Shown here: positions 19,671 through 23,774 of the stretch, one piece after another
How positions within the stretch are numbered: position 1 is the first letter of the stretch
Layout: each line of letters begins with the position of its first letter
Position numbers and translations under genes: made by a program
The notes under the pieces: generated by a model
The model's input: the letters and a program-made list of their open reading frames with translations, nothing else
Told to the model about the DNA's origin: nothing
Databases searched by the model: none
Source of the DNA: an uncultured archaeon
Lineage (GTDB): Archaea > Asgardarchaeota > Thorarchaeia > Thorarchaeales > Thorarchaeaceae
Direction of reading: 5' to 3'
DNA length: 32,000 nucleotides
NCBI GenBank assembly: GCA_964354495.1
Contig: CAYHAA010000001.1
Span: forward strand, 555,010 to 587,009

Positions 19671-20747
19671 CTAGAGTCTTCTCTTGCCTAAGAGGAATTC
19701 CTCAACCCAGCGTTCTGCTCTATACATCGTTGTAGGCGTGGGCGGCATCTTGAAACCGTATGCAGAGATGGACTCAAGTGAACCTCCGATGCCTCTTTTC
19801 AGAGCCAGCTTCGTTCCCCTAATGGCATCTAGCAGGATAGGTCCAGCATTCGGCCCGTCTGTCACTTCCATTCTGATATCTATCTTGATTGGAGCACCAC
19901 CGAATTGACGCCCATTGATGTAGAAGAATGAATCGCGCCCATTATCCATGAAATCAACATAGTCTGATGACCCTGCAACAAGTGGAGCATCATAGGGCAA
20001 GTCTTGGCTTATTGCTTCGCTCTTTACTCCTCTCTTTCTCATTCTGCCTCTGTAGTGAGAGTCAAGCGATTCCGCACCGCCACCAACATCAAGCTGATAG
20101 CTCTTGTCTACCTTCACTCCTCTTGCGACCAGAAGCTGCAGAATACTGCGATGCAAGACCGTGGAGCCCAGTTGATCCTGAATGTCGTCACCAATGAGCG
20201 GGAGTCCCTTCTTCTCGAACTTCTTATTCCACTCCAGATCTGAAGCGATCGATATTGGCGTTCCGTTGATGTATGCACACCCTGCGTCGAGCGCGGCCTT
20301 CGCATAGTACTTGGTGGCCTCCTCTGCTGAACCAGGCAGGAGATTGACCAGGATCTCTGCACCTGCATCCTTGAGTACCTTGACAACATTCGCATCGGGT
20401 GCCTTGGAAAGACTCACGAGCGTCTCAAGCATTTCATCCACTCCATCCAACAATGGACCCTTAGCGACAATGACACCAGTCTTGGGAACCTTAGAGAACC
20501 GCATCACATTGTTGGGTTTCGCAAAGACTGCCTCGGAGAGGTCAAAACCGACCTTTGTGTCGGCAACATCGAAAGCTGCTACAAACTCGACATCCCTCAC
20601 ATGGAATCCTGCGAAGTCTGGATGAGCTAGACCGGGTACATCTCCCTCAGCCTTTACATCCTTGTAATACTCTACTCCTTGGACTAGAGCGCTTGCTACA
20701 TTTCCGACTCCAACAATTGCTACTTTGATTCCATCCAATGTTGCCAC
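19671..20747 (-). CDS. ino1: Myo-inositol-1-phosphate synthase family protein with divergent active site
   Basis: VAIVGVGNVASALVQGVEYY, FVAAFDV..KVGFDL, IGDD, DGPNA and FKMPP match the actinobacterial/archaeal Ino1 type. Several catalytic motifs are altered (see findings). Confidence 0.8.
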   Translation of the reverse strand: MATLDGIKVAIVGVGNVASALVQGVEYYKDVKAEGDVPGLAHPDFAGFHVRDVEFVAAFDVADTKVGFDLSEAVFAKPNNVMRFSKVPKTGVIVAKGPLLDGVDEMLETLVSLSKAPDANVVKVLKDAGAEILVNLLPGSAEEATKYYAKAALDAGCAYINGTPISIASDLEWNKKFEKKGLPLIGDDIQDQLGSTVLHRSILQLLVARGVKVDKSYQLDVGGGAESLDSHYRGRMRKRGVKSEAISQDLPYDAPLVAGSSDYVDFMDNGRDSFFYINGRQFGGAPIKIDIRMEVTDGPNAGPILLDAIRGTKLALKRGIGGSLESISAYGFKMPPTPTTMYRAERWVEEFLLGKRRL

Positions 20748-20780
20748 CTCTGGTTCTTTTCGGACTTCTCTTGTCAGTGT

Positions 20781-20810
20781 CTTATATACTATTCTATTGA
20801 TATAGAATAG
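20781..20810 (-). promoter_or_regulatory. TATA box of the ino1-like gene with an adjacent 9-bp inverted repeat (candidate operator)
   Basis: TATATAAG on the minus strand at 20788-20781, about 34 nt from the GTG; CTATTCTAT-tgat-ATAGAATAG at 20789-20810. Confidence 0.5.
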
Positions 20811-20867
20811 TTAGACAATCATTGTTGGGGAGGAAGAGTTTATGTTGGAATTCTACGTATTATTTCA

Positions 20868-21106
20868 GTGGACGATTGGCCGACACCATGTTGCTCCATG
20901 CGTCGTCGGTAGTCGTGGGAACGACGCAGATACGCTGTAGTGGTCTATGCGAATGTCCCGTCATGGGAGATTCGCCTCTCACCGAAAAGGTTCAGGGAGA
21001 TACCCGAATAGTGTGTTTAGCGAGCACCACTCATGATCAAAGAGAAAAGAGGGTGGACCTCGAGCCCCAAAAATGGGCACCAAAAAGGGGGTTGGCCTTC
21101 GTCCAC
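20868..21106 (+). ncRNA. Candidate structured non-coding RNA of about 240 nt, family unknown
   Basis: Long-range closing stem (20868-20875 with 21099-21106; 20878-20883 with 21092-21097), internal hairpins, A-rich loops, and a BRE/TATA-like GGAAGAG-TTTATG at 20832-20844. Confidence 0.45.
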
Positions 21107-22312
21107 TTATTGTTCTGACTGATTCTCCTCAAGTTGCTCCGACAGGAGCTCCATGATATCTAGGACTCTGATTCTACTATTGATGCTCTCCGCTCCTTCT
21201 TTCAGATTGTGTACGCAGAATGGGCAGGCTGTTGCCAGTATATCCGCCCTGACCTCCTCTGCAGTCTTCACTCTGTCAGCGGCGATTCTTCTGGCAAGAG
21301 ATGCATCAAACGAACGCAAACCTCCTCCTGCCCCACAACACATTGCTGCCTCTCTATTGGGGGTCATCTCCACAAGCTCTACGCCAGAGATTGCCTTCAT
21401 GATTTCTCTAGGCTCTTCGTAAACTCCTAGCGCTCTCCCCAAATGACAAGGGTCATGCCATGTTATTCTTCTTTGCCTGTCACCACCCTTGAGTCTCAAT
21501 TTTCCATCATTGATAGCAGATTGGAGGAATTCAACTGCGTGCATCACTTTGGGCATATCGAGACCAAAGCGTTCTGAATAATCCTCGCGGAGCGTCTTTA
21601 GGCATCCCGCACATGTTACGATGATTGTCTTTGCACCCGACTCATTGATCCTCTGCACCAGTCTTTCTGCATTCTCTCTTGCACTGTGAATGCGTCCTGT
21701 CCTTATCATGACACTTCCGCAACATGGCTCATCTTCCAGAACTGCAAAACTGTACCCAGCAGCTTTCAAGACCCGGGCTGTCGATTTCGCTATTTCTGTC
21801 AGTTTGAAACCTGCTGTACATCCTGCGAAATACAGGACGTCGCCTGTGCTTGGAATGTCAAAGCCTATCTCAGCCGCCCAGTTTCTCCGCGTCTGATTCG
21901 TTTCGGTGTATGGATTATTGTATTTCAGAATCTTATCCGCAATCGCATCACGTGACTTGTTTGGTATCTCATTGAGGACCTCTCGCACGGTCTCAAGGCA
22001 CTTCGCAGGATCGAACTCAGCAGCGCAAATGGCAGTGCAATTGCCACAGAGTGTACATGTGTAGAGGGCTTCTGCGTTCTCTGTCGTCTTCTCAAGTCTT
22101 CCTTCCAACAGGGCAATGACGACTTGTATTCTGCCTCTCATGAAGCTAGTTTCAAAACCAGAGGAGTTCTTCCAGACAGGGCATACTCCATCAAAACCCC
22201 TGTCTTCATAGACTGCATTTCGACATATGCCACACCTGCGGCACTGCGCGAGGTTCTCCATCAATTCATCAATATGAACGTCAGTCGTTGTCAGAGCCCT
22301 CCTAATGTCCAT
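21107..22312 (-). CDS. Fe-S oxidoreductase subunit (GlcF/HdrD-like; 4Fe-4S dicluster plus two CCG domains)
   Basis: CRRCGIC..CP, CTLCGNC..C, FAGC, PCCG, TCAGC, HDPCHLGR, MCCGAGGG and ACPFC. Confidence 0.93.
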   Translation of the reverse strand: MDIRRALTTTDVHIDELMENLAQCRRCGICRNAVYEDRGFDGVCPVWKNSSGFETSFMRGRIQVVIALLEGRLEKTTENAEALYTCTLCGNCTAICAAEFDPAKCLETVREVLNEIPNKSRDAIADKILKYNNPYTETNQTRRNWAAEIGFDIPSTGDVLYFAGCTAGFKLTEIAKSTARVLKAAGYSFAVLEDEPCCGSVMIRTGRIHSARENAERLVQRINESGAKTIIVTCAGCLKTLREDYSERFGLDMPKVMHAVEFLQSAINDGKLRLKGGDRQRRITWHDPCHLGRALGVYEEPREIMKAISGVELVEMTPNREAAMCCGAGGGLRSFDASLARRIAADRVKTAEEVRADILATACPFCVHNLKEGAESINSRIRVLDIMELLSEQLEENQSEQ

Positions 22313-22346: not shown

Positions 22347-23774
22347 TCATTGCTTTTCACTCACGTGCTCAATCCCCGGAATAACCCCTGGATTCATGAT
22401 GTTGTTGGGGTCGATTGCTTCCTTTAAGCCACGAAGGAACTCCAAGTAGGTCTCCATCTCTGTTATGCCATCAACCCAATAAGGTGCAAGTTTGAACGGA
22501 ACCGCACCTGTCTTAAAGAGGCGTTTTGAGAGCTCCTTATGAGCTGCACGTGCTTTGATTTCTTCATCCTTGTCTTGCGGGTCATAGAAAATCTGAGGAT
22601 AATAGTTGTATGATCCATGCCCAGACTGGAATCCGGCAGTGTGACCAAGCACGCCGAACTCGTCAAAGAGGGGCCACATCTCTTCGATAGTACGATGCCA
22701 CTGCGACGGAGGTTGGTGGTGGTAAAGGATTCGCCAATGCCAACCGTGGACATAGGATGACCTTGCGAGTTCTCGCATGCGGTCATTCCATTCTCCCTGT
22801 GGGAGTTCGCGGATACCAATAACGTGTCCCCCAACTCCTTCGCAGGCCTCTCTGGCAGCTATGACGTCACCTTCCAACTGATCCTCTCTTACCCTTCCTA
22901 TCACCATAGATACGGTAACAGGTGGCCATTCGTGCTTTGGGACTCCGTACTCCTCTCCTACCATCTCAAGAAAGAAGTCCAGAATTCTACCTTCATATAT
23001 CGCAATCCAGACCGTGCTCAGGTCATTCTGTTTCACTTCAAACACGAATCTCTCAGCGTCCTGGGCGCTTTGAAAGCCGTAGGTGTTGTAATCGAAGTAG
23101 TGCATTCTCTTGAAGGTCTTTAGAGATACTTTCGTGATGATTCCAAAGGCTCCTAGTGATCCGATGAACAATCCTGTCAAATCCGGTCCAAAGGCATATC
23201 GGAGGTATGGCCCTGGAGCGTTGGGGTTGGCCTCAGAGCCCGTTTGGATAATATCGCCATTGGGAAGAACCACCTCAAGACCCAAAACAAGCTCAGCAAT
23301 GCATCCAAATCTACTTGAACCAAAACCTGCTCCGTTGACTGCTACATTCCCAGCAATTGTCGCAGTCAGCGAGGAACCGGGATAGATAGGTAGCCATAGG
23401 TCATACTTGTTGAGGAACTTGTCTAGTCTTCCAAAGTTGATGCCAGCGCCAACTTTGACAGAACGCAAGTCTTGATAGATGTGGATGTCGTCCAGCCTCA
23501 ATAGGTCGATAACGAGACCCCCCTTCTTGGGAATGACCTCTCCCTGCAAGCTGGATCCTCCTGAGCGAGGAGTCACAGGTATCCTGTACTCATTTGCGAC
23601 CTTGATGACCTGTGAAACTTGATGCGTATCTGCTGGTCTCACTACTACTGCTGGTAGAACTGGTTCGTAGCTGGTAGAGGCCGACACTGAATAAGTCAGT
23701 AGTACATCCTTCTTCGTGCTGACAAATTCGTCACCTACGATGGCGACAAGCTTCTGCACGACTTCCTTTTTCAA
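22347..23774 (-). CDS. FAD-binding oxidoreductase (GlcD / D-2-hydroxyacid dehydrogenase / VAO-type fold)
   Basis: VTPRSGGSSL, ATIAGNVAVNGAG, GLEVVLPNG, GPDLTGLFIGS.G.FGIIT and IDPNNIMNPG. Confidence 0.92.
   Translation of the reverse strand: MKKEVVQKLVAIVGDEFVSTKKDVLLTYSVSASTSYEPVLPAVVVRPADTHQVSQVIKVANEYRIPVTPRSGGSSLQGEVIPKKGGLVIDLLRLDDIHIYQDLRSVKVGAGINFGRLDKFLNKYDLWLPIYPGSSLTATIAGNVAVNGAGFGSSRFGCIAELVLGLEVVLPNGDIIQTGSEANPNAPGPYLRYAFGPDLTGLFIGSLGAFGIITKVSLKTFKRMHYFDYNTYGFQSAQDAERFVFEVKQNDLSTVWIAIYEGRILDFFLEMVGEEYGVPKHEWPPVTVSMVIGRVREDQLEGDVIAAREACEGVGGHVIGIRELPQGEWNDRMRELARSSYVHGWHWRILYHHQPPSQWHRTIEEMWPLFDEFGVLGHTAGFQSGHGSYNYYPQIFYDPQDKDEEIKARAAHKELSKRLFKTGAVPFKLAPYWVDGITEMETYLEFLRGLKEAIDPNNIMNPGVIPGIEHVSEKQ

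Follow-up and report, generated by a model that had tools for sequence, protein, structure and literature searches.

Positions 20870 to about 21106 (+ strand) of a 32,000-nt stretch of DNA from an uncultured archaeon of the family Thorarchaeaceae (the window, from whose first letter all positions are counted) very probably constitute a stand-alone gene for a stable, abundant, folded noncoding RNA (ncRNA) restricted to Thorarchaeota. We hold with high confidence that this is a real, expressed and previously uncatalogued structured RNA gene whose product acts as RNA. An unannotated structured Asgard ncRNA with its own promoter had been proposed for this strand from the letters of the window alone (hereafter the sequence-only reading), and the proposal is upheld by the lack of an Rfam match, covariation in relatives, a folding z score of -4.65 and RNA-library contigs confined to the RNA. 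The checks named with it, namely Rfam, conservation in relatives, dinucleotide-shuffled controls and metatranscriptomes, each came out in its favor, the last in the form of short assembled contigs. Judged from sequence, the RNA would start at or just before 20870 and end within 21107-21117.

Conservation, folding and expression of the RNA

Over the 239-nt stretch 20868-21106 (+) the predicted folding energy was -98.2 kcal/mol, against -75.4 (standard deviation 4.9) for 200 dinucleotide-preserving shuffles, none of which folded as well (z -4.65). The reverse complement of the same stretch gave a z of -3.88. Within the genus, RNAalifold predicted 62 pairs from a MAFFT alignment of 24 sequences, 21 of them with compensatory changes. 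When 60 members from across the family were aligned to the covariance model described below, 92.3% of cells held standard pairs, compared with 40–50% when the 3′ partners were slid by 1–3 columns; changes on both sides were seen in 51 of the 62 pairs, and 0 of 500 column shuffles reached any of five pairing measures. The strand test gave a clear direction, with 397 G-U or U-G cells and 92.3% canonical cells on the + strand versus 82.4% on the minus strand. The element is an RNA on the + strand, as had been surmised from its G-U pairing. An all-against-all comparison of columns for pseudoknots was dominated by clade-correlated columns and was uninformative.

Using a 289-nt query, blastn detected the element in 23 of the 27 other genomes of its own genus, at 69–96% identity, and in one further genus. 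The boundaries of conservation are sharp: it starts with GGACGA and ends with CGTCCACC, and similarity is lost immediately past the 3′ end. With a covariance model made from the genus members (R1), exactly one full-length copy was located in each of 68 of the 86 genomes of the family; 22 of the 23 high-quality genomes and 15 of the 16 genera are represented. The window's own genome, in an assembly 97.7% complete, holds a single copy by whole-genome sequence search. One other genome of the genus (G020) shows two (C292:1-182 and C398:51495-51761), one of them on a 541-bp contig; the second copy is probably strain heterogeneity or an assembly duplicate, not a true second gene.

Beyond the family the RNA disappears from view. 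A core model of 133 positions (R2), for which 31 members from 14 genera were used, recovers all tested family members outside one genus. Applied to 125 further Asgard genomes, it returned only three matches, with E values of 0.03–0.09, which is chance level. The class adds one genome beyond the family, and no match was found there. In the RNA-less genus none of four genomes matches; both flanking genes are kept and lie only about 100 nt apart, and the RNA gene has therefore been deleted. The syntenic loci at one of these flanking genes (Ino1, described below) gave no match in this genus or in the sister family, even with filters off. We also scanned one genome per species from 185,579 prokaryotic species with a 23-base degenerate motif across two hairpins. 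Of the 33 matches, 32 fall in assemblies that carry the label Thorarchaeota, Hermod- or Promethearchaeota, or 'uncultured archaeon', and the remaining one, from an actinobacterial assembly, is a hairpin arising by chance (10 bits). The motif scan of IMG/VR gave no match.

Expression was approached through public sequencing runs, 20 of which, from 11 studies, hold 13–28% of the sampled words of a 401-nt stretch; four runs were examined. Three metatranscriptomes from three different studies (X1, X4 and X7) yielded one contig each, of 196, 175 and 200 nt, at 95–99% identity, and a run of unrecorded library type (X18) yielded one of 182 nt. All four contigs lie wholly inside 20881-21089 and none reaches the flanking genes or has loose ends or joints. 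Three independent RNA libraries that assemble the RNA without its neighbors are as expected of an abundant small transcript.

The RNA family matches nothing catalogued. At the gathering score, no Rfam 15 family matches the 32-kb window; at E values up to 10, region 20700-21200 gave only a chance match (E 7.5), and 18 divergent members (58 kb) gave nothing at the RNA locus. Rfam matches to sX2 and HCV_J7880 are likewise chance. Candidate K-turn, T-loop, bulge-helix-bulge and U6-like ACAGAGA/AGC motifs were dropped by eye, their bases being Watson-Crick paired and co-varying or their spacing wrong. A literature search found no description of the RNA.

Architecture of the RNA

The helices and the surrounding features are collected in Table 1. 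In the fold, which is well supported, P1 and P2 close a multi-way junction holding the variable P4, a long P5 that bears P5a and P5b, a hairpin with an A-rich loop built on GAGGGUGGACCUC, and a dispensable P8, which is deleted in three species of the genus.

Table 1. Positions of the RNA gene, its helices and the features around it (two-sided: changes on both sides of a pair).
Feature	Positions	Strand	Remarks
RNA gene (very probable)	20870..21106	+	About 237 nt; placed by conservation boundaries, covariance-model matches, strand test, RNA-library contigs (20881-21089) and G+C
Promoter of RNA gene	20827..20846	+	Purine-rich stretch like a B recognition element (BRE), then TATA-like box TTTATGTT (20839-20846)
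P1, closing helix	20870-20875 with 21099-21104	+	GGACGA with TCGTCC; 94.7% of cells paired; 4/6 pairs with two-sided changes
P2, second closing helix	20879-20887 with 21088-21096	+	Has internal loop; 8/8 pairs with two-sided changes
P3, candidate helix	20892-20896 with 21022-21026	+	Conserved UGCUC with GAGCA; would enclose P4 and P5; competes with base of P7
P4, hairpin	20899..20928	+	Length varies among genera; 10/10 pairs with two-sided changes
P5, long-range stem	20931-37 and 20942-44 with 21002-04 and 21009-15	+	Carries P5a and P5b; 10/10 pairs with two-sided changes
P5a, hairpin	20950..20974	+	CGAAUGUCC...GGAGAUUCG; 99% of cells paired; 7/8 pairs with two-sided changes
P5b, hairpin	20977..20998	+	CUCUCACC...GGUUCAGGGAG; conserved 3-nt UCA bulge; CACC and GGUUCAG nearly invariant
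P7 region	21022..21061	+	RNAalifold pairs 21022-32 with 21051-61; built on invariant hub; A-rich loop
P8, small hairpin	21064..21078 (21065-67 with 21075-77)	+	GCCC...GGGC; 3/3 pairs with two-sided changes
T-rich tract	21107..21117	+	TTATTGTTCTG; likely archaeal termination signal; overlaps stop codon of convergent gene
TATA-like box and palindrome	20781..20809	.	CTTATATA (20781-88) and perfect palindrome TATTCTAT-N4-ATAGAATA (20790-20809); between Ino1-like gene and RNA promoter
Myo-inositol-1-phosphate synthase family gene (Ino1-like)	19671..20747	-	Divergent neighbor; Pfam PF01658 and PF07994
CCG-domain Fe-S oxidoreductase subunit gene	21107..22312	-	Convergent neighbor, abuts RNA; Pfam
FAD-linked oxidase gene	22347-23774	.	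Comes after CCG-domain gene; Pfam

Every complementarity listed in the sequence-only reading is present where it had been placed, and conservation with compensatory changes supports the 8-bp hairpin that we call P4, the interrupted hairpin P5a, the GAAAA-loop hairpin P5b and the GCCC/GGGC hairpin P8. The closing helix fared less uniformly. Its core, GGACGA/TCGTCC, is P1, whereas the outer G-T/A-C extension is peculiar to this genome and is paired in 35% of cells; the adjoining GGCCGA/TTGGCC stands insofar as it overlaps the supported helix P2. Two further pairings were not borne out across the 60 relatives: AGTGGT/ACCACT is paired in 58% of cells, the conserved long-range stem being P5 instead, and CTAT/ATAG is paired in 46% and corresponds to no conserved helix.

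In P5a and P5b the loops vary, whereas stem conservation exceeds the requirements of pairing. P5a contains a conserved purine-purine mismatch (G-G or A-A) in a stem whose sequence is nearly invariant across the family. Invariant stems of this sort usually point to a surface for protein binding or tertiary contacts, and P5a and P5b may form one here.

The middle of the molecule can be paired in more than one way. The hub GAGGGUGGACCUC (21049-21061) pairs either with GAGC-CCACUC (21022-32), which gives P7, or with GAUCA (21035-39), which is GUUCA in most members. For the P3 candidate, an alignment-free duplex search finds UGCUC/GAGCA in nearly all members with co-varying extensions, and 89% of cells are paired.

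A second GTGGAC (21053-58) had been suggested to compete for the 3′ end and so to allow two alternative folds. The motif is present and its pairing with the 3′ end is possible in 91% of cells, but the alternative fold finds no support, as this pairing never compensates. Where P1 changed from A-U to G-C, the change is compensated within P1 and the alternative GGUGGAC/GUCCACC pairing is broken; one genus has a C in place of the 3′ A without a matching change in the alternative-fold partner, and several genera are without GGUGGAC altogether. The RNA thus reads as one fold, not as a two-state switch built on its 3′ end.

Transcription signals and neighboring genes

The RNA gene stands out in composition, with a G+C content of 54%, compared with 48% for the genome and 34% for the gap upstream of it. 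The promoter-like GGAAGAG-TTTATG of the sequence-only reading proved to be real: every genus of the family carries a CTTATGT or CTTAATTG box at a constant distance from GGACG, with purine-rich sequence ahead of it. In the window the TATA-like box ends about 24 nt upstream of G20870. Archaeal TATA boxes have an established position about 26 nt upstream of the start, and since the spacing here matches that norm, transcription would begin at or just before 20870. At the other end, T-rich tracts come after CGTCCACC in nearly all loci, and transcription most likely ends in the tract right behind the closing helix.

The divergent Ino1-like gene is the upstream neighbor in 44 of 49 loci, and the CCG-domain gene is the downstream convergent neighbor in 41 of 49. 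This synteny may reflect simple inheritance rather than a functional link, because the flanking genes remain adjacent where the RNA was lost. The palindrome half ATAGAATAGT and the TTTAAAG or CTTATAAG box before it are kept across most genera of the family; the box and palindrome at 20781-20809 most likely serve the Ino1-like gene as promoter and operator, as far as sequence allows a judgment. In 12 of the 49 loci, from six genera, a gene for an OB-fold, SSB-like protein lies on the strand of the RNA, between it and the CCG-domain gene. It starts about 165–250 nt past the RNA in 11 loci (about 55 nt in one of them) and about 1.2 kb past it in the twelfth. The encoded protein has about 140–185 amino acids, and most copies carry a long Arg/Gly-rich C-terminal tail (for example, L012:1961-2458, +). 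This OB-fold/RGG family is multi-copy: the window's genome has nine matches, and each genome tested, also in the RNA-less genus, has several.

Possible roles, alternatives and comparison with known RNAs

The most likely role, which we put forward tentatively, is that of a core or scaffold of an RNA-protein particle. The RNA would act in trans through its three-dimensional fold, and P5a and P5b would serve as protein or tertiary-contact sites. We favor a trans-acting, shape-based role on several grounds: the RNA is served by a promoter and a terminator of its own, it appears to be abundant, its junction is ornate, its invariant stems include a mismatch and a bulge, its peripheral hairpins vary, and each genome has a single copy of the gene. 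A bolder version, in which the RNA is the core subunit of a hitherto undescribed, Thorarchaeota-specific ribonucleoprotein machine or ribozyme, with an abundance comparable to that of the signal recognition particle (SRP) and RNase P RNAs and with P5a and P5b as its functional center, appears rather unlikely to us; if true, it would mean a new class of cellular RNA in an archaeal group close to the eukaryotic ancestor. Since one genus has deleted the gene, the RNA would seem useful but dispensable, not universally essential.

A number of observations weigh against our reading of the element as a whole or temper it. Because the family-wide covariation alignment was fitted to the model and comes from related genomes, its counts overstate independence, although the within-genus MAFFT result agrees with it in direction. 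The contigs show neither strand, ends nor level, and DNA carry-over is formally possible. P7 excludes the combination of P3 with P6 (GUUCA/UGGAC); both arrangements fit the alignments and neither has decisive covariation. A whole-genome search for complementarity or similarity to the RNA found nothing above chance, and no partner or target was found. The sole recurrent same-strand neighbor, the OB-fold/RGG protein gene, gives no co-occurrence signal with the RNA, because it is multi-copy and present in the RNA-less genus. Loss of the RNA in that genus speaks against an essential housekeeping role.

Among other trans-acting roles, we consider a base-pairing regulator (an archaeal small RNA, sRNA) unlikely. 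Its seed would be UUGCUCC, CACCAAGUC or the CCACCU 3′ tail, two of which resemble the anti-Shine-Dalgarno sequence, and conserved CUCC- and CACCU-like single-stranded stretches, an own promoter and terminator and a single copy would all suit such a regulator. Yet the absence of above-chance complementarity anywhere in the genome argues against it, UUGCUCC is probably paired inside the molecule, and known base-pairing sRNAs are far simpler than this molecule of 237 nt and eight covarying helices. A ribozyme is a still more doubtful proposal, and a ligand sensor a very unlikely one. Equally slight is the case for a riboswitch-like leader acting in cis on a + strand gene, with the OB-fold/RGG gene as its ancestral target and the RNA orphaned in this genome. 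The ornate junction does recall large riboswitches, and the OB-fold gene follows on the same strand in the 12 loci from six genera mentioned above. However, 37 of the 49 loci have no same-strand gene downstream, and in this genome a convergent gene comes next, directly adjoining the RNA; the RNA is retained where the OB-fold gene is gone, a T-rich tract stands behind the closing helix everywhere, and the RNA-library contigs end within the RNA. These observations led us to reject a riboswitch or cis leader as an identity for the element. A minor part of our estimate carries no reading at all.

Whether the element could be something already known, or no RNA gene, is answered more firmly. A highly diverged universal RNA (SRP RNA, RNase P RNA, 5S ribosomal RNA, an intron-laden transfer RNA (tRNA) or a Y RNA) is highly improbable, even if the size and the 5′/3′ closing helix recall SRP, RNase P and Y RNAs. 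Archaeal SRP RNA (RF01857) has no match in the window at the gathering score or at E 10, and the genome's own SRP RNA lies at C3:175418-175729. It scores 91.6 bits, just below the Rfam gathering score of 96.5, and a second weak SRP-like match (C3:174398-174504, 35.7 bits) lies about 1 kb from it on the opposite strand. Archaeal RNase P RNA (RF00373) likewise has no window match, and two matches above the cut-off stand on contig C7 (C7:28603-28942 and C7:31249-31574, 157.5 and 110 bits, within 3 kb). The same holds for 5S ribosomal RNA (RF00001), whose gene is at C24:7086-7205. All told, 19 members gave no Rfam signal at E 10. The ends of the RNA, GGACGA...UCGUCC-A-CC, resemble an acceptor stem plus discriminator base, but they are acceptor-like in sequence only: P2 stacks directly on P1 with covariation, there is no T-arm or D-arm, the GUUCA motifs are all far from the 3′ end, and the inner hairpins are too conserved for introns. 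ARAGORN finds no tRNA in the window. In the genome it reports 33 tRNA genes, with none for Val, Ile, Thr, Asn, Tyr, Phe or Trp, a gap of seven isotypes into which a diverged tRNA might fit; introns interrupt most of these genes (469 and 1836 nt are among the predicted lengths), and ARAGORN has probably missed many tRNAs with non-canonical or multiple introns. The genome-wide tRNA list offers no tRNA-like reading of the RNA. For a Y RNA, the partner gene is missing, as Ro60/TROVE (PF05731) has no match in the 97.7%-complete genome. We give almost no credence to the view that there is no RNA gene and that the region is a terminator or 3′ untranslated region serving the convergent operon, a mobile element bounded by terminal inverted repeats, or a protein gene of 98 codons; sequence comparison, as far as it reaches, refutes all three. 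The 3′ helix does abut the stop codon of the minus-strand gene, and a minus-strand terminator had been named as the fallback in the sequence-only reading; the G-U pairs favor the + strand, however, and the RNA is conserved where that operon is more than 700 nt away. Although GTGGACGA and TCGTCCAC resemble terminal inverted repeats, the non-autonomous element once suggested on that basis, of the miniature inverted-repeat transposable element kind, does not agree with a single copy, at one syntenic site, in each of 68 genomes, with neighbors constant in 41–44 of 49 loci. Nor is the gap, described as gene-free, without open frames: a 98-codon frame (20822-21118, +) spans it and covers the whole RNA gene. 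The description holds in that the frame is non-coding. No Pfam domain matches it, the mean column entropies of 0.58, 0.58 and 0.50 at its first, second and third codon positions show neither a third-position excess nor other codon periodicity, many relatives have stops in all three frames, and RNA lengths are spread over all residues modulo 3. RNA genes of the family are stop-poor, with a median longest stop-free stretch of 67 codons, and gene callers may annotate spurious 'hypothetical proteins' over them.

The shape-based, trans-acting RNA that we favor has the hallmarks of a functional molecule: about 240 nt, heavily structured, single-copy across a family and seen in low-depth metatranscriptomes. 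RNAs of this kind usually prove to be the core of an RNA-protein particle, a ribozyme or a sensor. Eukaryotes have no closer known relatives than the Asgard archaea, whose RNA repertoire, to our knowledge, is almost unexplored apart from ribosomal RNA, tRNA, SRP RNA and RNase P RNA. The RNA is a defined target for functional study, since a model, its boundaries, its promoter and a genus that has naturally lost it are all at hand. Even if it were merely a lineage-specific regulator, it would still be a new RNA family for Rfam.

Three groups of known RNAs offer comparisons. As a possible working mode, 6S RNA and the Y RNAs with Ro60 may be instructive by analogy, being abundant, stable RNAs with a closing stem and their own promoters that act through shape; the Thorarchaeota RNA has no homology to either, its genome has no Ro60/TROVE gene, and we know of no archaeal 6S analog. 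Archaeal SRP (7S) RNA shares with it a similar size class, paired 5′ and 3′ ends, a single gene copy, abundance and an own promoter, but SRP RNA is rod-like where this RNA is branched, and neither an RF01857 signal nor a helix-8 motif was seen. The bacterial raiA, OLE and ROOL/GOLLD-type RNAs are orphan large structured ncRNAs that came from comparative genomics, are highly expressed and have no known biochemical role. The Thorarchaeota RNA differs from them in being archaeal and confined to one Asgard family, without Rfam 15 signal for those models, and it is smaller than OLE, ROOL and GOLLD. Like them, it has a stand-alone gene of a few hundred nucleotides, apparently high expression, a multi-helix junction with many covarying pairs, invariant unpaired and stem nucleotides, and variable peripheral hairpins.

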